Positions 11,268-43,335 of a DNA stretch of 64,000 nt are shown here, piece after piece. The stretch is taken from the NCBI GenBank assembly GCA_000002435.2, contig CM018790.1, one strand, 5' to 3'. The position numbers and the translations under genes are program-made. The notes under the pieces were generated by a model. It worked only from the letters and a program-made list of their open reading frames with translations. It searched no databases and was not told the DNA's origin. The stretch is from Giardia intestinalis (taxonomy: Eukaryota). Position 1 is the first letter of the stretch, and every line of letters begins with the position of its first letter.

Positions 11268-11921
11268 CTAGCGCAGAACAGCCACTGCCTCCACAATAGG
11301 TGATCTACAAAGTGGACAAGTGCGTAGTTGTGATGCAATGAAACACTGCTCGCAGACAATAAAGTGTCTGCATGGAAGATACACTATCTCTCGCGGTCTG
11401 TCTAAGCAGATAACACAGGTGTCTATATTGGTAAAAGATTGATTAGTGGTGTGATTGGAAGCTGTACTCTTCTCAAGGTATGTTCTATTCTGCTGTATTA
11501 CATTTTGCTGAAGCTTAGCATTCCAATTCCTTACCTGTTCCAGCTCTGCCTTTGTGTCCAGTAGCTCCGCAAGGAGCGCCAACTGATAGTCCAGATTTGT
11601 GCCTATCTGCAAGCTTAGGTCCTTGTCGTCTTCATCCTTGATGGTCCTTACTTTACGCGGAGGGTCCCGTAGGCAGTCAATAGCCTGGAGAAACCCTATG
11701 CTTTCCGCCAAGAACATAGGTGATATTCCGGCCGGGGTCAAGTAGGCCCTTTCATAGGGAGCCAAGATAACTGTGCACTCTAGCTTTCTACTCAAGATAG
11801 CCCTGTGAAGTGCCGCATATCCGTCAGCATCGCGCGTGCCAGCATATTGAGCTGCATGCTGTACTATCAGATCCAAATCGTTCTCCTCCACCGCCTTAAA
11901 AAGGATGTTTTGTGGTTCCAT
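11268..11921 (-). CDS. Ankyrin-repeat protein with C-terminal C3HC4 RING finger (E3-ligase-like)
   Basis: The N-terminus has ankyrin-type repeats ('DADGYAALHRAILSRKLECTVILAPYE'). The C-terminus 'CVICLDRPREIVYLPCRHFIVCEQCFIASQLRTCPLCRSPI' is a C3HC4 RING of the IAP/MIB terminal type. ATG at 11921. Confidence 0.75.
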   Translation of the reverse strand: MEPQNILFKAVEENDLDLIVQHAAQYAGTRDADGYAALHRAILSRKLECTVILAPYERAYLTPAGISPMFLAESIGFLQAIDCLRDPPRKVRTIKDEDDKDLSLQIGTNLDYQLALLAELLDTKAELEQVRNWNAKLQQNVIQQNRTYLEKSTASNHTTNQSFTNIDTCVICLDRPREIVYLPCRHFIVCEQCFIASQLRTCPLCRSPIVEAVAVLR

Positions 11922-12146
11922 AGCTATCAGGCTTTACCAGGATTATTTATACTCAATCTTTATACTCAGTCGTTGCTCCGAGTCTCGGACGATCTCAATT
12001 GAAAAGTGATGACAACACGATTGACTTAGAGGTAGTCTTGCCAGAAATAGCACAGTAAAACGGGGAGTAAGCAGAAAATGGAAGTTATTTACAACACACA
12101 CTTCAGGCAGAGAAGTCAAGGGATATGTGTAAACGGAATGCTAATG

Positions 12147-12659
12147 CTAATTGGTGCTGACAGGCGTACCTTCGTTAGCTAGCGCCTGCGGAAGAAGCTC
12201 TCGTATGTTTGCAAACTTAACATTGATTAAATTGACTGCGGAGGCAGTTTTCATGGAGTTATTCCACAGGATTAAAGTCTGCACGTTGGACGGATCTGTG
12301 AGATCGGGGACAGTATAGGTGCCGTGCGCTATTGTGTCGAGGAGCTCCTTCTCCTTCGCTGCCATGGCCATAGCAGCCACGGGTGACTTCTTCTTCTCAA
12401 GGAGAACAGGAAGGATCTCTGTCGAGTAGTAGTAAATTATGTAGTCTAGTGCCATCTTGCGAAGCTCTTCTCCAGTGTATTTGTTTCTATCCAAGTCTTT
12501 TCGCAGATGGTCTTGAAACCAACGTAGCTTCAAGAGGACTGGCTGACGCGTGGCAGATCTGTGCTCGAGTTTCTTCGCTGTAACCCGCTTGTCCCGCAGC
12601 ATCTTACCCGCCTCGTATGCAACCTGCCGTGATTTGGGGTGGACAAACTTCTTAGGCAT
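12147..12659 (-). CDS. TMA16: Translation machinery-associated protein 16 (TMA16) homolog
   Basis: 'MPKKFVHPKSRQ' matches TMA16 'VHP(K/Y)SRK'. 'LLKLRWFQDHL' matches 'EKLQWFQNHL'. The C-terminal 'GTYTVPDLTDPSNVQTLILWNNSMKTASAVNLINVKF' matches yeast 'GFLCPDLSDAKNMEFLRNWNGTFGLLNTLRLIRI'. Confidence 0.65.
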   Translation of the reverse strand: MPKKFVHPKSRQVAYEAGKMLRDKRVTAKKLEHRSATRQPVLLKLRWFQDHLRKDLDRNKYTGEELRKMALDYIIYYYSTEILPVLLEKKKSPVAAMAMAAKEKELLDTIAHGTYTVPDLTDPSNVQTLILWNNSMKTASAVNLINVKFANIRELLPQALANEGTPVSTN

Positions 12660-14113: not shown

Positions 14114-15631
14114 ATGCCGAGAAGTCTCGTTTATACAGACTTTTCCTACCTATACTCAGGCCCACTTGGTCCAGTCTTCAAAGCCAAGAGAACACATGAC
14201 GGAATGACAGTGCTTTTACGTACCATTTCTTTATCAGAGACACACCGTCTCCTTTGGCCAAGCTATCGAGATGCCGCAAGCCACTGTCTCCACTACCATC
14301 ATCCTAGCATCGCCGTCACTAGTGCTGTATACTTAGATGAGCAAGGCCATCGGTTTCTGACAGAATTTTCAGATCCGTCTGTGTTTACTGAGTTTCCTCT
14401 TCAACTGCTCTGTGAGGCTAATACAAAGCCACTAAATATGTATATTGCGTGGGACATTATCCGCCAGATAACCATGGTCCTTGATTGGCTCCACAACCCT
14501 CCGCCGGGCACCCAGCACAAGCCTGGATTTCATGGTCATTTGTCCCCAGCAAACATTACGTACTGTCTTCTCACAAAGAAGGCTACCATCTACGACGTGG
14601 GATTTTCAATAGTTCCTGGCCCAATGGCCTCCATGGCCGCTGAGTCAGCAGTCCAGATTCATGACGATCGCTTCAAAATTGGTACTCCAGCCGATATGTA
14701 TGCTCTCGGATGTATTATTTCACTCTTAGTAACCCATGTTGATAAGACTAACTCCAATTTTCTGCAGGAAATGATTTCTCTAAAGAAGGCATGTCAGCAT
14801 CCCTGCAATCACGCTCTAATTTCGTTTGGCTATATAATATCAATGTCACAGCACTATATGAATTGCTGCTCGCTTAAGTTTTCAAAGTCAATCGATGAGT
14901 TAACAAAGTCGTTCTTTTTCTCTCCCAAAGACGACCCAACACTCGATGACCGTTTCCAACAGGCCATTGAGGATAATGATTATGAGAGGATATTGGCTAT
15001 TCTGGAAGAAAGCACCCAGAGACAACTTCCTCTCTACGTTCACGTGGCTCGCTCAGCAACTCCTGTTTCGGGAAAGACACCGCTGATGATTGCCGCTGAT
15101 AGAGGAAACGTAGAAGAGATCAAGAAGCAATTCCAGTATCTAGGCCAATCGTATGAAGGTGATACGGCCCTAATGCTTGCGGCCAAACGAGGACATGCAG
15201 ACTGTATCCGTGTTCTGCTGGGGGAACTGGGAATTACTGATTCTAGTGGGTTCACTGCCTTGATGAAGGCAGCAGATCAGCCAGTCGCGCAAAACGCAAT
15301 AGACAGCGGCCTTATATACTTGCTTCCTGAGGCTCGCATGCACGCGCCAAGCGGTTGGACGGCGATGATGTTTGCGTCTAGCGAAGGAAATACATCCTTA
15401 GTCAGTGCTCTAGTGAGCCGAGAGGCTGGAATGCGTAATAGAGATGGCCGTACAGCTTTAATGTATGCAGCGTTTAATGGTCATGACCAAACAGTCAAAG
15501 TCCTCTTGGCAGCAGAGTCCAACCTTGTGGATAGCAAAAGAAAGCGGGCCATAGACTATGCTGTGGAGCAAAACAATATTAAATGTGTTCGAGTGTTGCT
15601 TGGGCGCGAGGTTTTAGTTAATGTGAGTTAA
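14114..15631 (+). CDS. NEK-like pseudokinase with C-terminal ankyrin repeats
   Basis: The N-terminal protein-kinase-like fold has degenerate catalytic motifs: 'HGHLSPANITY' replaces HRDLKPxN and 'DVG' replaces DFG, so the catalytic Asp is lost. The C-terminal half has TALMxAA ankyrin repeats ('GDTALMLAAKRGHADCIRVLL', 'GRTALMYAAFNGHDQTVKVLL'). An AGTAAAT motif lies 10 nt after the stop. Confidence 0.8.
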   Translation: MPRSLVYTDFSYLYSGPLGPVFKAKRTHDGMTVLLRTISLSETHRLLWPSYRDAASHCLHYHHPSIAVTSAVYLDEQGHRFLTEFSDPSVFTEFPLQLLCEANTKPLNMYIAWDIIRQITMVLDWLHNPPPGTQHKPGFHGHLSPANITYCLLTKKATIYDVGFSIVPGPMASMAAESAVQIHDDRFKIGTPADMYALGCIISLLVTHVDKTNSNFLQEMISLKKACQHPCNHALISFGYIISMSQHYMNCCSLKFSKSIDELTKSFFFSPKDDPTLDDRFQQAIEDNDYERILAILEESTQRQLPLYVHVARSATPVSGKTPLMIAADRGNVEEIKKQFQYLGQSYEGDTALMLAAKRGHADCIRVLLGELGITDSSGFTALMKAADQPVAQNAIDSGLIYLLPEARMHAPSGWTAMMFASSEGNTSLVSALVSREAGMRNRDGRTALMYAAFNGHDQTVKVLLAAESNLVDSKRKRAIDYAVEQNNIKCVRVLLGREVLVNVS

Positions 15632-17033: not shown

Positions 17034-17474
17034 ATGGTCCTGTTTAACATATGCGGCTGCAAGGGGAGTCAGAGGTCACAGTCTCAAACACAATACTCAC
17101 ACATCGTATTGGACGACAGTCTGTCGGACTACCCGTTCGACACCAGCAACAAGCTTGTCGGGGCGAGCAGGGCTCTCGACGCCGACGCCGCCTCGACGGT
17201 TGTCGTCAACGAAAGGCTGACGTCCATCGAGGCCAGAACCCTGTTGGGGCGGGTGCACACCATGGAGCTTCTGCTTGACCAGTCGGCCCACACGATTGGG
17301 GAGCTGCGCCGCGAAAACGCCAGGCTGCAGCGGGTCATCCTGTCCACAGACGCATCAACGCAGAAGATCAGGCAGAGGGAGGTCCCCAAGCAATGCGCAG
17401 CGGAGAGCATATCAGGGAAATTCACTCCAGAACTGCCACAAAGCCCTATTCGTATGCTCCCTCTTTCCTACTGA
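17034..17474 (+). CDS. Small hypothetical coiled-coil protein (GC3-rich)
   Basis: A 146-aa ORF with ATG at 17034 preceded by an AT-rich spacer. Third codon positions are strongly G/C. It has a coiled-coil-like stretch 'MELLLDQSAHTIGELRRENARLQRVILS'. It overlaps the convergent ankyrin gene by 7 bp. Competing small ORFs exist in the other frames. Confidence 0.4.
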   Translation: MVLFNICGCKGSQRSQSQTQYSHIVLDDSLSDYPFDTSNKLVGASRALDADAASTVVVNERLTSIEARTLLGRVHTMELLLDQSAHTIGELRRENARLQRVILSTDASTQKIRQREVPKQCAAESISGKFTPELPQSPIRMLPLSY

Positions 17475-18766: not shown

Positions 18767-18779
18767 TTTTATTTTCTCT

Positions 18780-31463: not shown

Positions 31464-33461
31464 ATGCATGACAAAGACAGTGCGGAGAATGACGGCTATC
31501 TGTGGATGAACGCCATAGCTAGCGGGCGCTTGGAGCTGGTCGAGGCGTCAATGACCGAGCGCACCTGTCCCATGCCCAGTGGACGCCCCGCCATTATCAG
31601 TGCCGCAGAGGCCGGCAACACCCCTCTCGTTGCACTTCTGTTGTCTCAGGAAAAAGACCTGTGCGACAATGCTGGAAGAACCGCGCTCATGCACGCAGCC
31701 ATTCACAATCATCTAACCACGGCAAAAGAGTTGTTGTCGTTAGCGGGAAGACAGACCAATGACGGCATTTCTGCGCTCATGTACGCTGCCTGGCGCGGCC
31801 ATCTCCAATTGGTTGAGCTCCTTGCGTGCTTCAAGAATGGCGTGGAGCTTGGGCTACAGCGTGCCAACGGCGAAACGGCTCTCATGACTGCCATCCGAAT
31901 GGGACACAAGAGCTGCGCCTTAGTTCTAATAAAGTCCGACAGGGAGCTCAACAAGCAAATGGCTGACGGAACGACAGCCCTGATGTTAGCGAAGACAAGA
32001 GACATAGCCATGCACCTTCTGTGTGAAGCCAATTTACTAAGAAAAGGCGGCCTTACTGCACTCATGACAGGGGCCATGCAAGATCTTGACGAAGTCGTCG
32101 AGTTTCTTGCTCCATATCTACGAGACAAACGATCTCATGAGGGATATACTGCTCTCATGCTGGCCGCTCGACATGGCAACGCGAAAAGCGTAAAGATCTT
32201 AATTAAAAAGACTGGCGAGTTGGGACTACAGGACAAACAGGGTAGATCAGCGCTAATGCTAGCCGCACACCACGGATCCAAGGACTGTGTAGAGCTCCTC
32301 CTTAAGGGGGAAGGCCACCTCGTTGACTATAAAAATCGCAGAGCCTCAGCCTATACCACGAATGATGATCTGAGGCTTCTGTTGGGACTATTCAACAGGG
32401 GGGATGTAGATACAGAGGGCCTAACGACTCTCATGCATGCAGCCAGGCTTACGCGCCCTGAGGTAGTTGAGCAGCTCATCAGCACACAACTAAAAGCACA
32501 GGATTCCATTGGACGCACAGCTCTTATGTACGCATGCCTTTGTGGGCATGAGAGTTCGGCAGAAATGGTCCCCGTAGTCTCTATGCTGTCTGCAGAAGCA
32601 GGATTATGTGACTCTCGTGGGCGTTCTGCGCTCTTCTACCTTATAGATAACCCCCACGTGCACGGCCTTACTGGAGAAGCAAGAGCCAATATCTCAAGCA
32701 TACTACTGCTCCTAAGCTCTGAGCTCTCGTTGGTTGGGCCAAAGGGATTAAGGCCTCTCGATTATGCAATCACGCAGGAGAAGTATGGGGTAGGGGCTCT
32801 CATCTATAACTCAGCTATGGCACTTCATACTGGAAATCTTGTCTCAATCCGGGCAATAATAGTATCAATGTTAAACACCCTTGCTTGCGGGGTAGATGAA
32901 GAATACGAGGATAGCCCTATGAGGGAAGACGCAAGGGCACTGACAGACTTTATATCTTCTTCCTTTTGTGACGACGGGCCCTTTCTTGCAGAAGAGCTTG
33001 CCGATCAGATGGAGAGCATATGCAGAGATACAGAGCTGCCAGGATGTTGCATATGCCTGGAGCAAGAAGCTGAGGAGGTTATGGTGCCTTGCGGACACTT
33101 GACCTGTTGTAAGAGCTGCTTATCGAAGGTTCATAAGGTATGTCCAGTTTGTAGAGCCCCTGTTCAAACTACAATTGCTCCTCTCTTTCGGGAAGAAACA
33201 CAGCATAGTAAGGATTTGGGTGAATCTAGGCGCATGCCGCCGCGGTCTACAGTCATGTCAACATTGTCGCTTATTGCCCAAGAACCTCACCTTCAGGGCT
33301 CAGAACCACTTTCTCGGACATCTTCCCCATCCAGCGTCAGTAGTACGCGCTATAACTTAACCACAGGCTCACAGAGTCTACGCCTAGAAGTGGACTCCGA
33401 GATGGAACTGTCCGACTCCACTACTCGTTCTGAGTCGCCCTCAGTCGGCTGGCCTGCGTGA
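31464..33461 (+). CDS. Ankyrin-repeat protein with C-terminal C3HC4 RING finger (MIB/IAP-type E3-like)
   Basis: The track start at 31344 is a TTG and overlaps the RER1 3' end, so I use the first in-frame ATG, at 31464. There are many TALMxAA repeats ('GRTALMHAAIHNHLTTAKELL'). The C-terminal RING is 'CCICLEQEAEEVMVPCGHLTCCKSCLSKVHKVCPVCRAPV'. Confidence 0.75.
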   Translation: MHDKDSAENDGYLWMNAIASGRLELVEASMTERTCPMPSGRPAIISAAEAGNTPLVALLLSQEKDLCDNAGRTALMHAAIHNHLTTAKELLSLAGRQTNDGISALMYAAWRGHLQLVELLACFKNGVELGLQRANGETALMTAIRMGHKSCALVLIKSDRELNKQMADGTTALMLAKTRDIAMHLLCEANLLRKGGLTALMTGAMQDLDEVVEFLAPYLRDKRSHEGYTALMLAARHGNAKSVKILIKKTGELGLQDKQGRSALMLAAHHGSKDCVELLLKGEGHLVDYKNRRASAYTTNDDLRLLLGLFNRGDVDTEGLTTLMHAARLTRPEVVEQLISTQLKAQDSIGRTALMYACLCGHESSAEMVPVVSMLSAEAGLCDSRGRSALFYLIDNPHVHGLTGEARANISSILLLLSSELSLVGPKGLRPLDYAITQEKYGVGALIYNSAMALHTGNLVSIRAIIVSMLNTLACGVDEEYEDSPMREDARALTDFISSSFCDDGPFLAEELADQMESICRDTELPGCCICLEQEAEEVMVPCGHLTCCKSCLSKVHKVCPVCRAPVQTTIAPLFREETQHSKDLGESRRMPPRSTVMSTLSLIAQEPHLQGSEPLSRTSSPSSVSSTRYNLTTGSQSLRLEVDSEMELSDSTTRSESPSVGWPA

Positions 33462-33570: not shown

Positions 33571-35691
33571 ATGTCGAGCATCGAGCTTCCCGAAGGCTAC
33601 CGCTTCCAGACGACTTTGGCGGCAGGAGAGTACAGCATGCTCTTCCTGGCCATGGGAAACGACTACCAGGAGGTCGCTATCAAGAGCTTTGATTGCACGC
33701 AGATGGACGATGCACAAGTCTCGGAAATTCACCGCCAGGCCCTACTCCTGAAGTCCGTTAACCATCCGCTGGTACTCAAGGTATATGACGTCCAGATGAA
33801 CATTACGCGCACGCGCCTGCACGTGATCATGGAGCCCTTCTTCAAGACGCTTCAGAACCTCATCGACGAGTGTGAGAAGGCAGATCGCTCGCTCCTCAAC
33901 AACATCGTCTGCCAGGTGGCCTACCAGGTCATCAAGGGGCTCCACTATCTCTCCACCACCAACCATGTCGCGGTCAACGAGCAGGGACAGGAGTTCTCGC
34001 AGGACAAGATCTTCCACTCGTTTATCACACCGAACGACATTGTGTTCAACACCTCCGGAGTTGTGAAGCTTATGAACATCTTCCCCCTGGAGCATAGGAT
34101 GCTCTATGAAAAGGGCGACGCCAGCTTCCCGGGGCTCGCCTATGCGTCGCCTGAGTTTCTCAACAGGGAATACACCGAGTGCCCTGCCGATGTGTGGTCT
34201 GCGGGCGCGTGCATTTTCGCCATGGCTATGCGCAGGCCCCCGTTCAACTCTACCAACGTGGAGTCCCTAAGGGTGGAGGTCGAAGAAGGAAAGAAGGATG
34301 GCCTCGATATCAGCTTCAGCCGCGAGCTTGATGACATGCTCCAGCGCATGATGACGCCGGACCAGGGCTACAGGCCCACTGCCGGCGATCTCCTCAACGA
34401 CCCCTCAATCACCGAGGCGGCGTACGAGATCGAAGCGGGCGGCCTGCAAAACCCGTGGATGGCAATCGGCTTCTCCAGGCCGATCTCTCAGGCAGTGGCC
34501 CCTGTGTCCAACGACTCCCCGGTCCTCGCCCTGGATCCGAACAATGTGTACCCGATTGCCTTCGATGACAACAACCCATGGGAGAGGTACTGGCTTAACG
34601 CTCCTCGTCCAGATGCGACAGTCGACGCAGCCTCCTACACCAGGGGCACTATCGGCGAGGAAGTGGTTGCAAGGGTCCCGACACCACCGCCCGAGATGGA
34701 TATGTATGCCACGATGGATGATGCCTACAAGGGTGCCAACGATGAGTCCGCCTACTACGCCCCTGATAGCTATTATGGCAGTGCCCCTGCAGAGAGCGTC
34801 ATGGACGTCGCGCAAGTTGTGCGGGTGGAGACGCCTCCTCCAGAGCCTGATGCCTATGCTGACGCGGGCGCTCAGGGCAATGACTATAAGGTGGACGATG
34901 AGGCAGCGGCCTACGCACTCACCAGCTACTACGGTGATGCGCCTGCGGACAGCATCATGCTTACCGATGATGAGGTAGTCCACAGGATTCCCACACCACT
35001 GCCAGAAGGGGTGGCAGAGGTAGTTGTAAAGAGGAGCGCACCAGCCCCGGTCCCAACCCCAGCCCCGCTCATGGAAACGGCACCTGAGTCCAAGACTGTC
35101 ACTGCTCTTATGAACGCGGTTCGAACGGGCAAAAACGATGTTGTGCAGAGGCTCGTCGGAGAGCACTCCGGAGACATCGGATGGAAGACGCCCAACGAGA
35201 AGAAGACCGCCCTCATGGTCGCTGCGGATCTTGGGAACGCCGAGGCTGTCGAGTTGCTGGCGCCATGTGAGTGTGGTGAGGTAGACTCGGATGGCTGGCG
35301 AGCGATCGATTACGCCGCCCAAAACGGTAATGTCAGGGCCGTCAACGCTCTTCTTCAGTACGAGGGAGACATGCCTATCGTGCGCAAGGACGGATGCACG
35401 CCGCTCTTCCAGGCGGTGTTCTGGAACAAGCCGGACTGTGTGAGGGCACTCGCTCCTAAGTACGCCGGCGCAACGACGACAAGCCACTACTGGCAGGGGG
35501 AGGGCTTTACGGCCCTCATGGAGGCGGCTAAGTGCTGCCGCGTCGAGTGCGTTGAGATTCTGGCGCCCTATGAAGCGAAGATGACGGACAAAAAGGGTCA
35601 TACAGCACTCTACCACTGTGAGCACGCGTGGGACCATATTCTCGATGACGCCAAGAAGGAGGAATGCATCAGGATCCTCGAGAGGGCCTAG
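33571..35691 (+). CDS. NEK-like pseudokinase with C-terminal ankyrin repeats
   Basis: The track start at 33514 is a TTG, so I use the first in-frame ATG, at 33571 ('MSSIELPEGY'), which has AT-rich sequence upstream. Kinase-like N-terminus: beta3 'VAIK' is present, but 'HSFITPNDIVFN' replaces HRDLKPxN with no catalytic Asp and there is no DFG; 'ASPEF' and 'DVWSAGACIF' are retained. The C-terminal ankyrin module is 'PLFQAVFWNKPDCVRALAP...HYWQGEGFTALMEAAKCCRVECVEIL'. Confidence 0.8.
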   Translation: MSSIELPEGYRFQTTLAAGEYSMLFLAMGNDYQEVAIKSFDCTQMDDAQVSEIHRQALLLKSVNHPLVLKVYDVQMNITRTRLHVIMEPFFKTLQNLIDECEKADRSLLNNIVCQVAYQVIKGLHYLSTTNHVAVNEQGQEFSQDKIFHSFITPNDIVFNTSGVVKLMNIFPLEHRMLYEKGDASFPGLAYASPEFLNREYTECPADVWSAGACIFAMAMRRPPFNSTNVESLRVEVEEGKKDGLDISFSRELDDMLQRMMTPDQGYRPTAGDLLNDPSITEAAYEIEAGGLQNPWMAIGFSRPISQAVAPVSNDSPVLALDPNNVYPIAFDDNNPWERYWLNAPRPDATVDAASYTRGTIGEEVVARVPTPPPEMDMYATMDDAYKGANDESAYYAPDSYYGSAPAESVMDVAQVVRVETPPPEPDAYADAGAQGNDYKVDDEAAAYALTSYYGDAPADSIMLTDDEVVHRIPTPLPEGVAEVVVKRSAPAPVPTPAPLMETAPESKTVTALMNAVRTGKNDVVQRLVGEHSGDIGWKTPNEKKTALMVAADLGNAEAVELLAPCECGEVDSDGWRAIDYAAQNGNVRAVNALLQYEGDMPIVRKDGCTPLFQAVFWNKPDCVRALAPKYAGATTTSHYWQGEGFTALMEAAKCCRVECVEILAPYEAKMTDKKGHTALYHCEHAWDHILDDAKKEECIRILERA

Positions 35692-35765: not shown

Positions 35766-36521
35766 ATGGACCCCATGGAGGTTGAGGTTATCCGTACGCC
35801 GTCCGACTCAGACATAGCTGGTTCCGGGGGGCCCGCGACTGCGGTGCCCATGAGCAGGGCCGCTCCAGCGCCCCAGGCCACAGGGGAAGATCCTCAGACG
35901 CTCCCGAGGCTGACCACGCTTGTCAACCCTGACGAAGGGGTGACGGAGCTCATGGTTGCTGCTCGCCGCGGAGACGAAGAGACCGTCATGGCACTCTTGG
36001 ACGAGCAGGCATGCCAGGTCGATGCACGAGGGCGTACAGCACTCATGTATGCCGCCGAGATGGGCAGATCATCCATTGTGGAGCTGCTTAAGGACCGCGA
36101 GGCAGGCATCCAGGACTCGTTTCTGTGGACGGCGCTCTTCTATGCGGCGCAAAACGGGCACCTCGTCTGCGTCTCCATGCTTGCACCTCTTGAAGCAAAG
36201 ATACAGCGCAAAGATGGCTGCACTGCCCTCTTCCTAGCAGTCTTTTGGAACCACATCGAGTGCGCCCGCATCCTCGCTCCTCTAGAGGCGGGGATCACAA
36301 CAAACTACAAACACTGGCAGGGCGGAGAGTACACGGCCCTCATGGAAGCAGCGAGGTGGGCCCGTTTGGAATGCATTGAACTTCTTGTCGAGCAGGAGCA
36401 CGGTATGAAGGACGCGTCTGGAAATAGGGCAATTGACTACGCCCGTGCTCCCTACGCACACGTCCCGGAAGATCGCAAAGAGCAGTCCATACAGCTTCTT
36501 GAGCAGTATGAGCGCGACTAG
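35766..36521 (+). CDS. Short ankyrin-repeat protein (kinase-less paralog of neighbouring NEK-ANK genes)
   Basis: The listed ORF ATG at 35664 overlaps the upstream gene. I prefer the internal ATG at 35766 ('MDPMEVEV'), which is preceded by 'acagaaaaaagtgagg'. It contains only the shared module: 'TALMYAAEMGRSSIVELL...ALFLAVFWNHIECARILAPLEA...KHWQGGEYTALMEAARWARLECIELL'. Confidence 0.7.
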   Translation: MDPMEVEVIRTPSDSDIAGSGGPATAVPMSRAAPAPQATGEDPQTLPRLTTLVNPDEGVTELMVAARRGDEETVMALLDEQACQVDARGRTALMYAAEMGRSSIVELLKDREAGIQDSFLWTALFYAAQNGHLVCVSMLAPLEAKIQRKDGCTALFLAVFWNHIECARILAPLEAGITTNYKHWQGGEYTALMEAARWARLECIELLVEQEHGMKDASGNRAIDYARAPYAHVPEDRKEQSIQLLEQYERD

Positions 36522-36641: not shown

Positions 36642-38189
36642 ATGGACGGCCAGGCCTTTGCCATGGACTACCAGCCCGTTGCGGACATCTACTCCACCGG
36701 CGTGCACGAGATTGCCTCTGCACGCTCGACCAGGGATCCTAGCTCGAACATCGCTCTCTTCACCTGCTCCTATGGCGGGTTTGACGAGTCGGACCGAGCT
36801 ACCCTCAGGAGGCGCACGGGCGAGTACTGCGAGTTCAACAACTCGTCGACCGCTGTCCAGCCGGATCTTCTTAGCCCTTATCTGGCGCGTCTGTCCCACT
36901 ACTTCAACGACGATGCGTCTGCCCTCCTGACCATGGGTCTTCCTTACGGAGTTAACACCCTCTACGACGTGATGATGGCGAAGGCTCAGTCATACAGCAA
37001 CTTCACCGAGGAGGAGGTCTGGCGCGTGGTTGCGGCCCTCTGTGATGCCGCGCGCTTCATGCACAGCGAGGAGAAACCCGACACAGAACTGGAGGAGTTT
37101 GCGCACCTTGGCATCCACCCTGCCAACATCTTCCTGTACGCTGACGGCGCCCGTATCAGGCTTGGGTACCCGTACATCTGCCCCACAATGAGTTTCAAGA
37201 ACCCAGGCAATTACAGGGCCTTCCAGCAGCTCGGCGAGGCGCACTTCATGGCGCCGGAGTTCATCGAGGCTGGCGCCAAGGGCTCGTGTCCTTGTGACAT
37301 ATTCTCTATCGGTATGGTTGGGTATGCCATGATGACAAACTCGACTGCCTGGAGCGCGAGCAATATCAACGATCTGCAGGGAGAGGTGTACACTCGCGGG
37401 GCCATCAGCCTGCCATACGACGGCCGATACAGCCAGGACCTCGTTGATCTCATCAACTCTATGCTTTCCTTCGACTCGTCTGCCCGCCCCAAGGCAGAGC
37501 AGCTCTGTGCAAGCGGAAAGATTGCGCAGTGCATCGCGGAGAACGGAGACGCTCCCACGATGGCTCCTCCGAAGATGACCCGCGATATCGTCCAGCCACC
37601 CAGCGGGCTCACAGACCTCATGATCGCTGCCAGAGACGGCGACCTCAGTGGCGTCAGGAACAACCTCCACCAGGCAGGGTCCACAGACCAGTGCGGCCGC
37701 ACCGCTCTCATGTACGCGGCAGAGCACGGGTACGCCGATTGTGTCCGCGCGATCGTCTCTGACGCAATGGGCCACGGCGAGGTTCGCCTCCAGGACAAGT
37801 ACATGTGGACTGCAACCATGTATGCTGCCCAGAACGGACACGCCGATTGCGTCTCGCTTCTCCACGAGGAGTTCGGGATGCAGCGTCGCGACGGTGCCAC
37901 GGCGCTCTTCACTGCCGTCTTCTGGAACCGTTGCGAGTGCGTCAAGGTGCTCGCCCCGACTGAGGCCATCATCTCCACCAACGACAGGTACTGGCAGGGC
38001 GAGCGCTACACGGCTGCAATGGAGGCCGCAAGGTGGGGACGTCCCGAGTGTCTCCAGGAGCTTCTTGGGTACATCGACAAGTACACTACCGATAATAATG
38101 GGAACGATGTGGCGTACTATGCCATGCACCCATGGGAGCACGTGTCTGCAGATAAGAGCAGCAGAGTGCGTGAGGTCCTGAACCTGTAA
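36642..38189 (+). CDS. NEK-like pseudokinase with C-terminal ankyrin repeats
   Basis: The track start at 36561 is a GTG, so I use the first in-frame ATG, at 36642 ('MDGQAFAMDY'), preceded by 'gcaataaaATG'. The catalytic loop is 'AHLGIHPANIF' (HRDLKPANI with D->G and K->H). 'APEFIE' and 'DIFSIGMVGY' are retained. The C-terminal module is 'ALFTAVFWNRCECVKVLAPTEA...RYWQGERYTAAMEAARWGRPECLQELL'. An AGTAAAT motif lies after the stop. Confidence 0.8.
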   Translation: MDGQAFAMDYQPVADIYSTGVHEIASARSTRDPSSNIALFTCSYGGFDESDRATLRRRTGEYCEFNNSSTAVQPDLLSPYLARLSHYFNDDASALLTMGLPYGVNTLYDVMMAKAQSYSNFTEEEVWRVVAALCDAARFMHSEEKPDTELEEFAHLGIHPANIFLYADGARIRLGYPYICPTMSFKNPGNYRAFQQLGEAHFMAPEFIEAGAKGSCPCDIFSIGMVGYAMMTNSTAWSASNINDLQGEVYTRGAISLPYDGRYSQDLVDLINSMLSFDSSARPKAEQLCASGKIAQCIAENGDAPTMAPPKMTRDIVQPPSGLTDLMIAARDGDLSGVRNNLHQAGSTDQCGRTALMYAAEHGYADCVRAIVSDAMGHGEVRLQDKYMWTATMYAAQNGHADCVSLLHEEFGMQRRDGATALFTAVFWNRCECVKVLAPTEAIISTNDRYWQGERYTAAMEAARWGRPECLQELLGYIDKYTTDNNGNDVAYYAMHPWEHVSADKSSRVREVLNL

Positions 38190-38265: not shown

Positions 38266-40599
38266 ATGGCTGCGGTTCAACTCCCTGCCCCCTACGTCTG
38301 GACAGCAGATATATGTAGGACGACCCTTGGATGCATTTGTCAGGCAATGGACACGAGTAACAACACCGAGGTGACGGTCAAGGTTGTGAATTACTCACAA
38401 CTCTCCCAGGAGGAGGCGAACGCCCTGGCCCACGAGGCGCGCGCCCTTTTATACCTCAATCACGATCACGTTGTCAAGACATATAACACAATCATAGCTC
38501 CCGAGACTTACACAATATACATTATCATGGAGCCGTGTCTAGGAACTTTGGGGACGGCAATACAGGTCATGAGCGCATACGGCCAGCAGATTCCCGAGGA
38601 GCACATCTGGTACATCGCTGCCGAGGTCGGGTCTGCTCTTAAGTATCTCCACGAGCCACATGAGAAGATGATGATTGACTGGTACTCTGCTGAAATCCCT
38701 ATAGGGCCTGTCGTTCATGGGTATCTCACGCCTTCCGACATCTTTATTTCTCGCGATGGAAAGTGCAAGGTTGGTGGAATAAGCCCGACGCAGTCGGCAT
38801 GGGAGATCCGCTCGGGCAACGCTGACCTGGGCAGACTTTTCCTCCAAGCCCCAGAGATCTTAGATATGCAGCCGAATATCACAGAGAAGGTCGATATCTG
38901 GTCGTTGGGGACGACTCTCTTCTTTATCGCTGCCTTTCAATCAGTTTGGATCTCCAGTGACTACGCTAGTATAGTCGCTGAGATAAAACACGGGAAGATC
39001 CAGCGCCTCCCCGATAGGTATTCCTGCGAGCTTGACGGCTTTATAGCTCGGTGTTTGCAGGTGGATCCGATGTACCGTCCATCCATTTTGGAGCTGCTTT
39101 TGGAGCCCCAGATCAACGACGTCATGCGTTCAGTGTGCGAGGGGTCTGTTCCGTCTATGCGCTATCTCCTTGGGCTATCTGAGGAGTCCGAGTCTCAGCC
39201 GCCCTCTATGCAGCCTGAGGAGCCAGCGGCACCTGCTGCGCCAATCCAAGAGCAGCCCGAAGAGCAACCTCAGAGAGACCCGATGCAGGTGGAGCGCATC
39301 TCTACACCCATGTCTGGGTCGCTCACCGCTGAGCCCAGGGCCCCTGAAAATCTTGAGCTGCCTCCTTTGCCGACAGACACTCCGACAGTTTCTACTCTTG
39401 AACCTTCCGAAATGGCTGTTTATGCACCTTCCGAGACTCGTACATTTGCCACTGAGCCGGCGACGTCTGACTTTGTAGATGCCGCTGAAAAGATTGTTAG
39501 CCTCATCGCTAAAGAGGCGTGTGCTCCCTCTGTTCCTGCGGAGGACATACGCGAGCCCGTCGACATGAATATCCTCCCAGCAAGCGTCACAGCGTCTATC
39601 CAGCCCGTTCCCGACCCCACTCCAGATGTTATAGCAGAGAAGATTGTCTCTGAAATCATTACTGCCGCCGATGATGATCTTTACAATAACACTGTGAGCG
39701 TTGTTGAAAGGCTGGAGGAGCCGGAGGACTCTGACGTGGGTGTAGTCTGTACAGCACTGCAGGATCCATCTCTCGTTGAGTCTGTGAAGAGACTTGAAGA
39801 GCCTGCTGTTGAGTACGATGTTCCTGTTGAGCCGGTCTACGCCACCGCTCCAAGCGCCTTTGCCAAGCCAGACACAGGCGTGGCCGAGGTCCTGAAGGAG
39901 GAGGAACCTGCCGTTGAAGCCAACACGTATGAGGCAGAGCCCGTTCTTGCTGCACCCATCCAGCCTGACGTGTATGCCAATAAGACCTTTGACTCCTCAG
40001 TTGTGCGCCCTGTAGAGGGTGTAACCCAGCTAATGCTTTGCGTTGAGAGAGGCGATCTTGAGGGTGCCAAGTATTATATCAATGAGGCAAGGTCCTCTGA
40101 CTCCTTCGGAAAGACTGCTCTGATGCGTGCCGCTGAACTTGGCAATTCGGAGCTAGTCGAGCTTCTTGTCGGATACGAGGCTTGCCTGCAGGACATTGAC
40201 GGATGGACTGCGCTCATGTTTGCCGTCCACAGCCGTAATACAGAGTGTGTTCGTCTCCTTGAGCCTCGTGAGCACGGGATGAGGCTCGCCAACGGACAAA
40301 CTGCACTGATGATGGCCTCCTTCTGGAACAATTCCGATGCCGTCTCCATACTAGCTTCGAGGGAATCGCGCGCGAGAACGACGGAGAGGTACTTTGAAGG
40401 CGAGGGATTCACAGCGCTCATGGAGGCTGCAAGGTGGGGACGCCACGATATTGTGAAGCTGCTTCTTCCGCACGAGGGCGACATGCGTGATTCCAGCGGG
40501 AAGACCGCACTTGATCACGCCCGCATTTCTGCCCATTCAGTTAGTCAGGTTGACAGAGACGAGTGCATTGCCATTCTCAGTGGTTCATCCGCCTGTTGA
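38266..40599 (+). CDS. NEK-like pseudokinase with acidic/Pro-rich linker and C-terminal ankyrin repeats
   Basis: ATG at 38266 is preceded by 'cttttttaaaaagaaattaATG'. The kinase-like N-terminus has 'VVHGYLTPSDIFIS' replacing HRDLKPxNI (D->Y, K->T). 'APEIL' and 'DIWSLGTTLF' are retained. The C-terminal module is 'TALMRAAELGNSELVELL...RYFEGEGFTALMEAARWGRHDIVKLL'. An AGTGAAT motif lies 3 nt after the stop. Confidence 0.8.
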   Translation: MAAVQLPAPYVWTADICRTTLGCICQAMDTSNNTEVTVKVVNYSQLSQEEANALAHEARALLYLNHDHVVKTYNTIIAPETYTIYIIMEPCLGTLGTAIQVMSAYGQQIPEEHIWYIAAEVGSALKYLHEPHEKMMIDWYSAEIPIGPVVHGYLTPSDIFISRDGKCKVGGISPTQSAWEIRSGNADLGRLFLQAPEILDMQPNITEKVDIWSLGTTLFFIAAFQSVWISSDYASIVAEIKHGKIQRLPDRYSCELDGFIARCLQVDPMYRPSILELLLEPQINDVMRSVCEGSVPSMRYLLGLSEESESQPPSMQPEEPAAPAAPIQEQPEEQPQRDPMQVERISTPMSGSLTAEPRAPENLELPPLPTDTPTVSTLEPSEMAVYAPSETRTFATEPATSDFVDAAEKIVSLIAKEACAPSVPAEDIREPVDMNILPASVTASIQPVPDPTPDVIAEKIVSEIITAADDDLYNNTVSVVERLEEPEDSDVGVVCTALQDPSLVESVKRLEEPAVEYDVPVEPVYATAPSAFAKPDTGVAEVLKEEEPAVEANTYEAEPVLAAPIQPDVYANKTFDSSVVRPVEGVTQLMLCVERGDLEGAKYYINEARSSDSFGKTALMRAAELGNSELVELLVGYEACLQDIDGWTALMFAVHSRNTECVRLLEPREHGMRLANGQTALMMASFWNNSDAVSILASRESRARTTERYFEGEGFTALMEAARWGRHDIVKLLLPHEGDMRDSSGKTALDHARISAHSVSQVDRDECIAILSGSSAC

Positions 40600-40644
40600 T
40601 TAGTGAATTTGCGCTGAACTGTACTTGAACTAAACCTTTTAAAA

Positions 40645-43335
40645 ATGGCGGCAGGGTTGAACGGCGAGGAGCGCGGCGACACCGCTCTGATTAGAGCAGC
40701 AAAGGCTAACAATCTCAGAGCAGTCATGGCCACCTTTCCAGAGGATGCGTGTAAAACTGACCACACAGGCCGCACGGCCCTCAGCTGGGCTACCGAGCGG
40801 GGATATGTTAATATTGTCCGGTACTTGATACACAAGGAGGCGAGGATTGTTGACAGGAAGGGTGTCACTGCGCTAATGATCGCCGTAAAGCGCCAGAACA
40901 TCTCCTGCGTCATGTCTCTTTACGCATACGAGTCCGGGTTCCAGGATAACCACGGCTGGTCTGCGCTTCACTGGGCAGTTTTCTATGGCTGCGCAAACAT
41001 TGTCCAGTACTTGGCTCCGTTGGAGGCTGGGCTCATCACTAACAATGGAACCACCGCCTTGATGTGCGCTGCCCAAAAGGGGTATGCAAACATCATCCCC
41101 TATCTTCTAGCCGCTGGAAGGGAGCTTAGAATGGTTGATAATTTGAAGAAGAGCGCACTCATCTATGCAGTAGAAGCAGGGCACGAGGATATAGTGCAGC
41201 TCTTAGCTGAGAAGGAGGCGGGAATAACTGACATGCTCGGACGATCGGCTCTCATGTATGCTGTGATAAATAAGAGGCCGGCGTGTGTCTCTATTCTTGC
41301 TCCGTATGAAGCGGGCATAGTTAGTAGTGAGGGGATGACTGCGCTTATGTATGCCGTGCAACAGCATGAGTGGCACATTGCGATGATTTTGGCCAAGCAA
41401 AAGGCAGAGCTAGGGAAGCAGGCTGCAAAGGAAGTTACTGCGCTTATGCTCCTGATGGACGCGAAGGATCCTCCGTCCGAAGTCGTGCTGGCACTTGGAG
41501 ACCGTCTGATCCCTTATGAAGCTAAGCTATCCGACTCTGCGGGCAATACAGCCCTTATGCGCGCAGCAATGCGGGGGGACATTAAGATGGTTGAAAGACT
41601 TGTCACCCACGAGGCGGGAATGCAGTCGTTGGCGGGGAAGACAGCTATGATGCTAGCCAGCCACGCTGGGCATGATGAGATTGTAAGATTACTTTCACCC
41701 ATAGAGAAGGGTCTCGTTGACGCCATGGGGCGGACTGCATTAATGTACGCCACAAGGGCAAACAATGATAACGTGATACGATACCTCATTCCGTTTGAAA
41801 GCAGAATGACTGATTTCTATGGCAAGACGGCGTTGATGTGCGCTGCAAAGAATAATTATATGCCGATTCTTAAGTTTCTTGCGTCAAAGGAGTGCAAGAT
41901 TAAAGATCACAAGGGCCGGACGGCTCTGATGCGGGCAGCCGCTAGCGGGCACATAGAGTCAGTAGCATTCTTGGCTCGGTATGAATCGCAACTTCAGTCG
42001 GAGAGTGGTTTAACTGCCTTGATGTTTGCTGCCGTCAATGGCCATTCAACCGTGGCGCGAGTTCTCGCCAAAACAGAGGCCGGGATGCGCGATTCTACAG
42101 GACGGACTGCCCTTCTCCTTTCGCTGGTTAACAATCATGAAAATGTCGCCCGTGCGCTTCTTGTATTCGAGCATCAACTTGCTGACGATCAAAAGCGGAC
42201 CGCCCTGATGTATTCTGCCCAAACAGCATTCGACTCGGTGACTCGGTCACTTATAGCCCTGGATAATCTGGCTAAAAGACAAGATGATGTAGGTCGCACG
42301 GCACTAATGTATGCTGTCACTTCTTCGCAGAGAAATGCTATCAGAGCGCTGCTTCCCAAGGAAAATTGCATGGTTGACAAGAACGGACGGACTGCACTCA
42401 TGTATGCCGCGCGTGCGTGCCTGTCTCCGGGGGTCCCGGGGCTCATCGAGAGTGAAGCAGGAATACACGATAACGACGGTCTAACGGCCCTCATGTATTG
42501 CTGTCTCAGCAAAAACTACTCGCTAGCGGATCTTTTGTTATCAACGGAGGTCTGCATGCGTGACAAGCGGGGACAGACAGCGCTCATGTATGCTGCCAAG
42601 GAGGGTTGCAAGGAGCTCGTCAATAAGTTGCTTCCACACGAAGCGGACATGCGTGACCATAGCGGGAAGACCTCATTGATCTATGCTGTTGAAAACGGGC
42701 ACTCTCATCTGGTATCGTCCCTGGCGTCGGAGAACAGGCTTTCCGATAAGCATCTTCAAACGCCATATGACTACGCAATGCGTCTGCGCTGCACAAAGTC
42801 TGTACAGTCTCTTGTCAGCATCTTAACAGATACGTCCACTCTCGTGCTAAGTGCCAGTGTTTGTTTACAATTCATCCGAAACCTTTCTCCGATTGTTTCG
42901 TATATGCTCTGGAAGAGTAAGAACACTCTCTATGCGATTCACGCACACACCTTATTGGATACCCTGATGTCATTTTTGTTTGATGATCTAGACATTAGTC
43001 TTCTGCGTTCTGAGGAAGAACAACGATGTGGTGAGAGCCTCATGCATCTCTGCACCATCAACGATAGTTTCATGGCCTCGTCGTCTTCGTTCTGGCTCCG
43101 CGGAGAAGCTCGGCGTCGGTACATGCACCGGACGCGGACTATGGAGATCTCTGATGCTTCACATGACTCCGTCTGCGCAGTGTGCTTAGACAACCATCCC
43201 AATGTCGTCTTTCTGCCATGCAGACACATGGTTGTCTGCAGTGCTTGCTTGACGTCTATGGAGCGTCACTGTCCTTATTGTCGAAAATATGTCTGTCGTC
43301 ACTTCACTATAAACGAAGAAGACATACTCTGCTAG
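40645..43335 (+). CDS. Large ankyrin-repeat protein (more than 20 repeats) with C-terminal C3HC4 RING finger (MIB/IAP-type E3-like)
   Basis: ATG at 40645 is preceded by 'aaccttttaaaaATG'. It has a continuous run of 'GRTALMYAxxxxHxxxVxxL' repeats. The terminal RING is 'CAVCLDNHPNVVFLPCRHMVVCSACLTSMERHCPYCRKYV'. Confidence 0.8.
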   Translation: MAAGLNGEERGDTALIRAAKANNLRAVMATFPEDACKTDHTGRTALSWATERGYVNIVRYLIHKEARIVDRKGVTALMIAVKRQNISCVMSLYAYESGFQDNHGWSALHWAVFYGCANIVQYLAPLEAGLITNNGTTALMCAAQKGYANIIPYLLAAGRELRMVDNLKKSALIYAVEAGHEDIVQLLAEKEAGITDMLGRSALMYAVINKRPACVSILAPYEAGIVSSEGMTALMYAVQQHEWHIAMILAKQKAELGKQAAKEVTALMLLMDAKDPPSEVVLALGDRLIPYEAKLSDSAGNTALMRAAMRGDIKMVERLVTHEAGMQSLAGKTAMMLASHAGHDEIVRLLSPIEKGLVDAMGRTALMYATRANNDNVIRYLIPFESRMTDFYGKTALMCAAKNNYMPILKFLASKECKIKDHKGRTALMRAAASGHIESVAFLARYESQLQSESGLTALMFAAVNGHSTVARVLAKTEAGMRDSTGRTALLLSLVNNHENVARALLVFEHQLADDQKRTALMYSAQTAFDSVTRSLIALDNLAKRQDDVGRTALMYAVTSSQRNAIRALLPKENCMVDKNGRTALMYAARACLSPGVPGLIESEAGIHDNDGLTALMYCCLSKNYSLADLLLSTEVCMRDKRGQTALMYAAKEGCKELVNKLLPHEADMRDHSGKTSLIYAVENGHSHLVSSLASENRLSDKHLQTPYDYAMRLRCTKSVQSLVSILTDTSTLVLSASVCLQFIRNLSPIVSYMLWKSKNTLYAIHAHTLLDTLMSFLFDDLDISLLRSEEEQRCGESLMHLCTINDSFMASSSSFWLRGEARRRYMHRTRTMEISDASHDSVCAVCLDNHPNVVFLPCRHMVVCSACLTSMERHCPYCRKYVCRHFTINEEDILC

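Follow-up and report, generated by a model that had tools for sequence, protein, structure and literature searches.

Ankyrin-RING genes of predicted ubiquitin-ligase type and a neighbouring NEK-ankyrin array in Giardia intestinalis

In a 64,000-nucleotide stretch of DNA (the window), three genes encoding C-terminal RING fingers, here called g1, g2 and g3, lie within 32 kb of each other, and two of them stand next to genes that combine NEK kinase-like domains with ankyrin repeats. This arrangement raises the question of whether the three RING genes are close kin and whether they form a functional unit with the kinase-like genes beside them. By exact-sequence look-up, proteins of the window were identical to proteins of Giardia intestinalis WB; the window is from G. 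intestinalis WB C6, and the genes matched in this way all carry annotation. Six peptide strings, which a sequence-only reading of the window had quoted for three RING motifs, were each found exactly once at the places given (11295-11417 on the minus strand, and 33045-33164 and 43174-43293 on the plus strand), and they fall within the intact ORFs of g1, g2 and g3. Judged from their sequences, the three are real G. intestinalis genes of the ankyrin-plus-RING, predicted ubiquitin-ligase type. The observation was thus partly confirmed, and its earlier interpretation partly supported.

RING domains and architecture of the three proteins

The RING domains of g1 (11268..11921, minus strand, 217 aa), g2 (31464..33461, plus strand, 665 aa from the first ATG) and g3 (40645..43335, plus strand, 896 aa) matched Pfam PF13920 (zf-C3HC4_3) with 53.4, 42.9 and 43.3 bits, respectively (E = 2e-14 to 4e-11; gathering threshold, 27 bits), and as sequence matches these far exceed chance. 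All three also fit the regular expression C-x2-C-x11-C-x-H-x3-C-x2-C-x7/8-C-x2-C, so that the proposed assignment to IAP/MIB-type C3HC4 RINGs was borne out by both profile and Cys/His spacing. In an alignment of 16 Giardia RINGs, ten columns were invariant, namely the eight zinc ligands, the Pro before C3 and the Pro after C7, and an Arg after C8 was present in most sequences. All of these, together with a hydrophobic residue after C1, are retained in g1, g2 and g3. A profile of the Giardia RINGs matched cIAP1 (E = 2e-17) and XIAP (E = 5e-15) more strongly than the third RING of MIB1 (E = 7e-8; 35 bits versus 65 for the IAPs). Among solved structures, the best sequence matches were the cIAP1 and cIAP2 RINGs for g1 (E = 3e-9) and the cIAP2 RING for g2 (E = 1.7e-9). 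For g3, an AlphaFold model of the RING (mean pLDDT 85.4, core at least 93) was matched by Foldseek to the RINGs of cIAP2, IDOL, cIAP1, BIRC7 and XIAP at an rmsd of 1.7-2.1 Å; the superpositions covered about 52 columns with a probability of 1.00 at about 1.9 Å.

The RINGs could instead be structural or interaction modules devoid of ligase activity, which would make the proteins scaffolds like the Protein 21.1 or ARP-1 members. Such pseudo-E3s would fit a family that expanded alongside catalytically dead kinases and in which the Arg after C8 has been replaced in some relatives (Ser or Gly in P0200 and P0207, Lys in P0121). However, g1, g2 and g3 themselves keep every one of the residues listed above, the key RING positions are intact in orthologues down to 63-78% identity, and the modeled fold of the g3 RING is nearest to active dimeric RINGs, several of which were solved with UbcH5B. 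We judge a lack of ligase activity to be quite unlikely.

The RING had been placed at the extreme C-terminus of each protein. This holds for g1, whose RING core (11307..11417, minus strand; residues 169-205, C1 to C8) leads into a hydrophobic tail that, at 12 residues, is about as long as in IAPs, and for g3, whose core (43174..43281, plus strand; residues 844-879) is followed by 17 residues. In g2, however, the core (33045..33152, plus strand; residues 528-563) precedes a Ser/Thr-rich tail of 102 residues (33153-33458), which is kept in orthologues including P0230 of G. muris. Ankyrin repeats, likewise claimed for all three proteins, form a long TALM-type solenoid in g2 (about 10 repeats, six with the exact TALM motif) and g3 (at least 17 repeats, 14 with the exact motif, separated from the RING by a non-ankyrin linker of about 150 aa), but not in g1. 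The latter has about two degenerate ankyrin-like repeats, its Ank_2 score of 18.7 bits is under the cut-off of 27.3, and the TALM motif is absent; the backing for these repeats consists of orthologues with precomputed PF12796 matches and weak DARPin/ankyrin-2 matches. By sequence, g1 is therefore not clearly an ankyrin-repeat protein. A long helix at residues 106-151 is predicted solely by a model of low confidence.

Kinship of the three genes and their family

g1 is identical to KAE8301936.1 / XP_001707045.1 / A8BH48, annotated as [quoted passage not shown], and its orthologues are 63-99% identical with RING ligands invariant in all. g2 is identical to KAE8301947.1 / XP_001707034.1 / A8BH29, has orthologues of 69-87% identity in other G. 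intestinalis lineages, and is annotated in the reference as "Ankyrin repeat protein 2" (ARP-2). Many Giardia read assemblies also have g3 as a called gene at this position, and a divergent lineage has an orthologue there with 78% identity and an intact RING.

The three genes had been described as paralogous, which stands at the level of the Pfam family but not in the sense of close kinship. Their RINGs share 31-35% identity, no higher than that to human cIAP; in a comparison of 31 RINGs they rank 10th to 23rd as mutual neighbors, below human cIAP1/2, and they were placed in three separate clades. Because of these identities and the separate clades, g1, g2 and g3 are not local duplicates. A recent tandem or segmental duplication that placed a RING cassette at either end of the array would account for the shared Pfam family, the same general layout and the 32-kb span, yet g2 and g3 are only 28% identical overall and, for each of the three genes, orthologues or closer paralogues of its own exist elsewhere. 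For example, the nearest relative of the C-terminal region of g3 is P0168, at another locus, and an ankyrin segment of g3 is 39-44% identical to unlinked proteins, which is comparable to the 45% with the adjoining kinase-like gene NEKc. Furthermore, g2 already occupied its place before the lineage of G. muris split off; the positional orthologue there is P0230. The identities and the tree refute local duplication, which we regard as most improbable.

The sequence-only reading also held that ankyrin-RING proteins are not a well-known Giardia family, a view contradicted by the literature and by the annotation of g2. A paper of 2011 pointed out that both the NEK and the Protein 21.1 families include C-terminal RINGs (PMC3218828), a ubiquitin inventory of 2020 listed 30 E3s with ankyrin repeats and a single C-terminal RING (PMC7029713), and Xu et al. 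(2020) defined an ARP-2 class of ankyrin plus zinc finger proteins, to which 33 G. intestinalis genes and 86 G. muris genes belong (PMC7641422). ARP-2 is the RING-bearing subset of the old "Protein 21.1" and corresponds to the 30 ankyrin-RING E3s of the inventory (PMC7029713). A family of about 30 genes is thus already catalogued, and g1, g2 and g3 belong to it. g2, through its annotated class name, and g3, through its layout, agree with ARP-2, which in the same organism pairs TALM-type ankyrin repeats with one PF13920 RING at the C-terminus and has homologues in G. muris; g1 departs from this as a reduced version that has some two weak repeats and whose annotation mentions just the RING domain.

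Outside Giardia, the best sequence and fold matches of the RINGs are those of the IAPs (cIAP1/2, XIAP, ML-IAP/BIRC7) and IDOL/MYLIP, with the same ligand spacing, conserved prolines and Arg after C8. Unlike these, the Giardia proteins lack BIR, CARD, UBA and FERM domains and would use an ankyrin solenoid as the substrate-binding part, and g2 has its long tail after the RING. The suggested Mind-bomb/XIAP layout applies as a general resemblance, since MIB1 and MIB2 likewise end in a PF13920-type RING that comes after ankyrin repeats, but Pfam found no MIB/HERC2, ZZ or BIR domain, the REP domains of Mind bomb are missing, and there is one RING instead of two or three. The plant XB3/XBAT proteins, with N-terminal ankyrin repeats and a single C-terminal C3HC4 RING, were proposed as the closest family by the 2020 inventory, in whose tree one of four Giardia clusters lies near XB3 (PMC7029713). 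With the XB3/XBAT RING model PF24921 (cut-off 50), however, g1 scored 19.3 bits and g2 and g3 gave no match, and the repeats in Giardia, of a lineage-specific TALM type, far outnumber those of the plant proteins.

The NEK-ankyrin array and its gene order

That two RING genes bracket a NEK-ankyrin array was confirmed: g2 and g3 flank four genes on the same strand, with spacers of 45-120 bp in the block. NEKa (33571..35691, plus strand, 706 aa; KAE8301948.1 / A8BH24, "Kinase, NEK"), NEKb (36642..38189, plus strand, 515 aa; KAE8301950.1 / A8BH19) and NEKc (38266..40599, plus strand, 777 aa; KAE8301951.1 / A8BH18) each combine a kinase-like domain with ankyrin repeats. NEKa matched Pkinase with 76.7 bits, as well as Ank_2, and retains the VAIK lysine; HRD motif, DFG motif and glycine loop are missing from all three. 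In Table 1 of PMC12538575 they are classed as "Int-ncPsK" and reported to differ between trophozoites and cysts. This class agrees with the earlier description of them as pseudokinases, which they are predicted to be from the missing catalytic motifs. The fourth gene, ARP-1 (35766..36521, plus strand; KAE8301949.1, 251 aa), is ankyrin-only; a longer ORF of 285 aa has its start at 35664, inside the last part of NEKa. ARP-1 shares 41-48% identity over about 200 aa with the ankyrin modules of the three NEKs, and all four inner genes have in common about 190 aa of C-terminal ankyrin module (39-48% identity). These four are one old tandem family, and g2 and g3 stand outside that duplication.

In G. 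muris, the order is Rer1, ARP-2, NEK, ARP-1, NEK, NEK, and the genes pair off one to one as best matches; g3 is absent from that block, its place being taken by a SET-domain gene. The positional orthologues are 36% identical over the full length for NEKa, 53% for ARP-1 (216 aa in G. muris), 41% over the full length for NEKb and 47% over the kinase domain for NEKc. [quoted passage not shown]

Such conservation could reflect a functional module in which the ankyrin repeats of g2 (and, in G. intestinalis, also of g3) recognize the adjoining NEK pseudokinase scaffolds or their complexes and control their turnover, co-regulation keeping the genes together. The three NEKs appear in PMC12538575 as pseudokinases with stage regulation, kinase-ankyrin-RING fusions occur in Giardia as a Rosetta-stone-type hint (PMC3218828, PMC7029713, PMC12538575), a report on ubiquitylated proteins includes NEKs and 21.1 proteins (PMC3684764), and two ARP-2 genes would flank a given array by random placement with a probability of only about 4e-5. 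Against this, the G. muris block has no g3, and local synteny between the two species is common, covering 3043 orthologues and being the norm for about two thirds of genes (PMC7641422). Published maps show no obvious clustering of NEKs and ARPs, and the ubiquitylation supplements contained no match for six accessions (g1, g2, NEKa, NEKb, NEKc and a guessed accession for g3). Of the other ARP-2 genes, 12 were sampled and two had a kinase neighbor, which is chance level (P = 0.46 with an expectation of 0.13 per gene), so that in this small sample, picked by g2/g3 similarity and mixing two species, ARP-2 genes came close to the random spread relative to NEK arrays that had been named in advance as counting against a link. 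In the same sample (12 genes at nine loci), an ankyrin-family neighbor was present at six of the nine loci, with P = 0.011 by G. muris gene-family frequencies and 0.002 by WB frequencies. Giardia is not known to use operons, which also speaks against a module. We consider the module unlikely; a tie between the E3s and the pseudokinases is a hypothesis that we do not favor, and nothing special was seen beyond ordinary conserved gene order.

Predicted function

We regard g1, g2 and g3 as separate, anciently diverged ARP-2 members, each most likely a single-chain RING ubiquitin ligase. By homology, the TALM-type ankyrin solenoid would bind a substrate or anchor the protein at a cell structure, and the IAP-type C3HC4 RING would recruit a ubiquitin-charged UbcH5-like E2 and promote direct ubiquitin transfer. 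As in the IAPs and IDOL, from which E2 use and dimerization in Giardia are extrapolated, the RING is probably dimeric; a g1 dimer could form through its short hydrophobic tail or a coiled coil, and the Ser/Thr-rich tail of g2 may be regulatory.

Overall, the genes are real, ordinary and already known. The placement of g2 and g3 around the pseudokinase array does not indicate a dedicated unit of RING genes acting on adjoining kinase-like genes; it reflects ordinary conserved local gene order, together with a general tendency of ankyrin-family genes to adjoin one another.

Layout and annotation of the three RING genes

By an exact-sequence look-up, eight predicted proteins of the window were found to be residue-identical to proteins of G. 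intestinalis WB clone C6 (ATCC 50803), which are encoded on a 1.54-Mb contig under accessions KAE8301936-KAE8301953 / XP_0017070xx; these eight genes are already annotated, and the organism assumed in the sequence-only reading was the right one. The six RING strings quoted in that reading are each present once, within three intact open reading frames (ORFs). The gene g1 (KAE8301936.1 / A8BH48) occupies 11268-11921 on the minus strand and encodes 217 aa, with its RING strings at 11295-11417 (-); g2 (KAE8301947.1 / A8BH29) lies at 31464-33461 on the plus strand and encodes 665 aa when read from the first ATG, the start codon also used in the annotation, with its strings at 33045-33164 (+); and g3 lies at 40645-43335 on the plus strand and encodes 896 aa, with its strings at 43174-43293 (+). 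Orthologues at 63-87% identity likewise have intact ORFs and RINGs.

All three genes had been described as ankyrin repeats followed by a RING at the extreme C-terminus, and this held in part. In a Pfam scan and motif count, g2 gave an Ank_2 score of 190.6 bits with 6 copies of TALM, the Giardia-type ankyrin repeat motif, and g3 gave 404.1 bits with at least 17 repeats, 14 of them with exact TALM, whereas g1 scored only 18.7 bits against the cut-off of 27.3 and had no TALM motif. Two g1 orthologues have precomputed PF12796 matches and designed ankyrin proteins match g1 weakly; judging from its sequence, g1 probably holds two degenerate ankyrin repeats at most. It is named a RING-domain protein in the reference annotation, not a member of the ankyrin-plus-zinc-finger class (ARP-2), and looks like a minimal version of the ankyrin-RING layout. 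The full-length g1 model, built from a five-sequence alignment, had a mean pLDDT of 43, too poor for fold comparison, and its low-confidence coordinates offer at most a hint of a long central helix. The g2 gene is annotated as 'Ankyrin repeat protein 2', and its RING is followed by a Ser/Thr-rich tail of 102 residues that is kept in orthologues, including that of G. muris, and may be a regulatory region. A RING at the extreme C-terminus is thus found in g3, in which repeats, linker, RING, and a 17-residue tail follow in this order, but not in g2.

The g3 protein and eight alternative starts had no exact match in the protein collection, and the best hits of a homology search were at no more than 37% identity. 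Its close orthologues are also absent from that collection, so the g3 orthologues were read from fetched DNA; the contig index likewise lists no Pfam domains for g3. In many Giardia read assemblies (L001-L006 and L016 among the fetched loci), however, the gene is predicted at this position, and the missing protein seems to reflect a gap in the database, not a biological absence.

The Mind-bomb/XIAP-like architecture proposed for these genes applies to the type of RING but not to the full layout. Mind bomb proteins (MIB1/2) begin with MIB/HERC2 and ZZ domains, also contain REP domains, and end in two or three RINGs, whereas only ankyrin families and one RING were detected in g2 and g3 by the Pfam scan; IAP proteins carry at least one BIR domain, of which the same scan found none in g1, g2, or g3. 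Like the plant XB3/XBAT proteins, g2 and g3 have ankyrin repeats at the N-terminus and one C3HC4 RING at the C-terminus, to which g2 adds its tail. With the XB3/XBAT RING model PF24921 (50-bit cut-off), however, g1 scored 19.3 bits, g2 and g3 gave no match at E <= 0.01, and 6 of the 16 aligned Giardia RINGs matched weakly (best E-value, 1e-5). Both g2 and g3 carry the ankyrin repeats and zinc finger that define ARP-2.

RING type and kinship

The eight-ligand RING pattern C-x2-C-x(9-39)-C-x(1-3)-H-x(2-3)-C-x2-C-x(4-48)-C-x2-C was matched as a regular expression by g1, g2, and g3, so that the Cys/His spacing proposed from the sequence was upheld. Classification with a profile hidden Markov model also agreed with the proposed IAP/MIB type: PF13920 (zf-C3HC4_3) scored 53.4, 42.9, and 43.3 bits for g1, g2, and g3, respectively, against a gathering threshold of 27, which excludes matches by chance, and it was matched by 16/16 aligned Giardia RINGs. 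Ten columns are invariant in these 16 RINGs, namely the eight zinc ligands (C1 to C8 in order) and two prolines, one preceding C3 and one following C7; in most of the RINGs C8 is followed by Arg. Around C1 the three proteins read CVIC, CCIC, and CAVC and around C7 CPLC, CPVC, and CPYC, with Arg after C8 in all three. In general, binding and activation of an E2 by a RING depend on a hydrophobic residue after C1, the Pro after C7, and a basic 'linchpin' after C8. As far as can be judged from these residues, g1, g2, and g3 would all be equipped for E2 binding.

The best solved sequence relatives of each RING were cIAP1, cIAP2, XIAP, and ML-IAP (E about 1e-9 to 1e-10), with MIB1 RING3 far weaker. 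A profile of the 16 RINGs gave E = 2e-17 (65 bits) against cIAP1 and 5e-15 against XIAP, but only 7e-8 (35 bits) against MIB1 RING3. Structure prediction from a RING alignment of 13 rows yielded an AlphaFold model of the g3 RING with a mean pLDDT of 85.4 and a core at or above 93; in a Foldseek search this model was superimposed on cIAP2, IDOL, cIAP1, BIRC7, and XIAP at 1.7-2.1 Å over about 52 columns with a probability of 1.00, and MIB1 RING3 ranked 44th. For g3, the only one of the three modeled to this standard, the predicted structure has the cross-brace RING fold. The matches of sequence, profile, and fold together show that the IAP/MIB-type class was right and that IAP proteins and IDOL are the nearer relatives.

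By eye, a helix-like motif of hydrophobic and acidic character can be made out 60-100 residues upstream of the RING in many ankyrin-RING proteins of Giardia. It is seen in g3 at residues ~735-760 (window ~42850-42925) and in P0104, P0168, P0180, P0181, and P0099; examples are LLDTLMSFLFDDLD, LYDSILALLFDDLD, and LELMWAALLCEYDN. This motif may be a family-specific linker element. A G. muris-specific ankyrin-RING expansion (P0132, P0140, P0145, P0239, P0273, and P0299) ends in a 12-residue tail (…TVKVYL, …VIKAYI), which we take to resemble the aromatic C-terminal tail used by IAP RING dimers; this expansion is the nearest group to g1 outside its own orthologues.

The three genes had been called paralogous, which is correct only in the sense that they are members of one Pfam family. 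Identity among the three RINGs is 31-35%, as against 37-41% with human cIAP1/2 and 43-50% with a variety of further Giardia RINGs, and g2 and g3 share 28% identity overall. In a neighbor-joining tree the three RINGs fell in separate clades: g2 with its orthologues and G. muris P0230, g1 with its own orthologues, and g3 with P0168, P0267, and P0264. The nearest relative of the g3 C-terminal region is P0168, from a different G. duodenalis locus. At the level of sequence comparison, the low identities, the separate clades, and the relatives elsewhere exclude a recent local duplication of the three genes.

Two further relationships of g3 were considered and rejected. An exchange of ankyrin repeats with its neighbor NEKc, which is 45% identical over the g3 ankyrin segment, was dismissed, since the identity of unlinked proteins to this segment is about as high (39-44%). 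P0168 was considered as a g3 orthologue from a distant species that could preserve an ancestral bracket; its source, however, is the same sequencing series of G. duodenalis, and it lies at another locus, where its neighbors are an annexin-family gene and an ankyrin-only gene.

The pseudokinase array and its gene order

As the sequence-only reading had it, two RING genes bracket a NEK-ankyrin array: between g2 and g3 lie four genes, all on the plus strand and separated by spacers of 45-120 bp. These are NEKa (A8BH24; 33571-35691), an ankyrin-only (ARP-1) gene (35766-36521), NEKb (A8BH19; 36642-38189), and NEKc (A8BH18; 38266-40599), the three NEK genes combining a kinase-like domain with ankyrin repeats. 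A motif check found no HRD, DFG, or glycine loop in the three kinase-like domains, and the VAIK lysine is kept in NEKa only. None of the three therefore has the full set of VAIK Lys, HRD Asp, and DFG Asp of an active kinase, in agreement with the label 'Int-ncPsK' in a 2025 kinome re-annotation, which lists A8BH24, A8BH19, and A8BH18 as pseudokinases with interaction domains and, in its Table 1, counts them among 31 non-core kinases with a reported change from trophozoite to cyst (PMC12538575). The four inner genes have in common a C-terminal ankyrin module of about 190 residues with 39-48% identity, which indicates that they form one old tandem family.

The annotation of the ankyrin-only gene has changed from a 285-aa 'Ser/Thr protein kinase' to a 251-aa 'Ankyrin repeat protein 1'. 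Its longer ORF (35664-36521, +) overlaps the end of NEKa by 28 bp, and in two read assemblies (L002 and L003 7400-8257) the gene is split into ORFs of 62 and 223 aa. In P0229, a 536-aa ORF on a 2766-bp Logan contig (corresponding to window ~32700-34300), the RING and tail of g2 run on via the translated spacer into the kinase domain of NEKa. P0229 was rejected as a natural RING-kinase fusion, since it is a frameshifted ORF call on a contig that is frameshifted at its end too, and is read as an assembly or indel artefact.

Two further ankyrin genes lie in the span, at 14114-15631 (+) and 17468-18955. The former encodes 505 aa, and is annotated 'Ankyrin repeat protein 1 / Protein 21.1' (the latter an old family name); its N-terminal region lacks catalytic motifs and matches the protein-kinase model at 21.1 bits, short of the 31.7-bit cut-off. 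It exemplifies the cryptic remnants of kinases described in 21.1 proteins (Manning et al., 2011). The flanking genes are ordinary ones (Tma16, kinesin, Mlf1IP, a CCT subunit, Rer1, and a DNA helicase). No gene is obvious in a 5.7-kb region at about 18.96-24.73 kb, which includes a GC-rich stretch at 20500-23000 (GC 0.61-0.70, the window as a whole having 0.50) and in which long ORFs overlap on both strands. The ORF at 21299-22108 (-), 269 aa with an ATG start, had no Pfam match, and an Rfam scan of the gap at 16.8-24.8 kb gave none either. Of two very large ORFs, one at 3395-11233 (-; 2612 aa) had no Pfam match and the other at 54599-63097 (+; 2832 aa) had only an EF3-type HEAT-repeat match.

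On G. muris contig CM016926.1 the gene order is Mlf1IP, kinesin, Rer1, ARP-2 (603 aa), NEK (708 aa), a 216-aa ankyrin gene, NEK (478 aa), NEK (811 aa), and a SET-domain gene. For 5/5 block genes the best window match was the positional counterpart (g2, 230 bits; NEKa, 384; ARP-1, 202; NEKb, 389; NEKc, 300), and these one-to-one matches indicate that the block and its internal duplications are older than the split of G. muris and G. intestinalis. On CM016926.1, g3 is not found at the 3' end of the block. A divergent lineage of the G. intestinalis complex, in which g2 is 69% identical, has the whole block, including a g3 orthologue that is 78% identical with an intact RING. With 3043 one-to-one orthologues between the two species, local synteny is common (PMC7641422), and conservation of the g2-to-NEKc block is therefore not exceptional in itself.

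To place this arrangement among its equivalents, regions of ±10 kb around other ARP-2 genes were surveyed in WB-like, P15, and G. muris assemblies, a small and non-random sample of 12 genes at 9 loci. A kinase-domain gene was the immediate neighbor of 2/12 genes, compared with a chance expectation of 0.13 per gene (P = 0.46), and a NEK with ankyrin repeats was a neighbor in one of the 12; the proposed clustering of ankyrin-RING genes with NEK arrays thus finds no backing here. An immediate neighbor from the ankyrin families (ARP-1, ARP-2, or NEK) was present at 6/9 loci (P = 0.011 when family frequencies of G. muris are used, 0.002 when those of WB are). At one WB locus, around P0104 in a read assembly of G. 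duodenalis assemblage A (L007 1-17000), 17 kb hold three ARP-2 genes (418, 749, and 1477 aa) together with three ARP-1 genes (785, 1074, and 804 aa), and a kinase domain was not detected there. Ankyrin-family genes tend to cluster together and ARP-2 genes show no specific attraction to NEKs, a direction that is clear in this small sample.

Putative ligase function and place in the family

The domain composition, the conserved zinc ligands, the fold, and the retention of intact ORFs and RINGs in diverged orthologues have direct support; E2-dependent ligase activity of g1, g2, and g3 is putative. By analogy with IAP proteins and IDOL, each would act as a single-chain RING E3, in which the ankyrin solenoid may bind substrates or serve localization and the RING would bind and activate a ubiquitin-carrying UbcH5-type E2, probably as a dimer. 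On a further reading, the five-gene block, with its order unchanged since before the split from G. muris and its three pseudokinases reported as stage-regulated, could be a functional neighborhood in which g2, together with g3 in G. intestinalis, ubiquitylates the adjacent pseudokinase/ankyrin scaffolds or their complexes during encystation. We consider this improbable, and the distribution data do not favor a functional link between ligase and pseudokinase. Among five confirmed XP accessions of the cluster and one guessed for g3, 0/6 occur in the ubiquitylome supplements of PMC3684764; by accession, the genes were traced in the literature to PMC12538575 only, and the text of an encystation RNA-seq paper does not discuss the NEK or ankyrin-RING families.

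The ankyrin-RING family had been thought not to be well known; in fact it has been named and counted in three published surveys. A 2020 ubiquitin inventory lists 71 C3HC4 RING proteins, 30 of which have ankyrin repeats and a single C-terminal RING and were likened to plant XB3, and notes 14 that are MIB-like without MIB architecture; it also reports that multisubunit (cullin-type) E3s are absent from Giardia (PMC7029713). For G. intestinalis and G. muris, respectively, 33 and 86 ARP-2, 184 and 216 NEK, and 269 and 298 ARP-1 genes have been counted (PMC7641422). At least 14 G. muris proteins among our matches are named 'Ankyrin repeat protein 2', all with PF13920. Because the family is known and the reference genome annotated, the finding adds little in this respect. 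It does sharpen the published 'XB3-like / MIB-like' labels, in that Giardia ankyrin-RING domains lie much nearer to the dimeric RINGs of IAP/IDOL type than to those of Mind bomb or XB3 of plants, and this typing suggests UbcH5-type E2s as candidate partners. Amid about 180 NEK pseudokinases and about 30 ankyrin-RING ligases, the conserved block of g2 and pseudokinases is a candidate E3/substrate pair; if that reading were true, the block would be a rare example in a eukaryote of a ligase gene adjoining the genes for its substrates.
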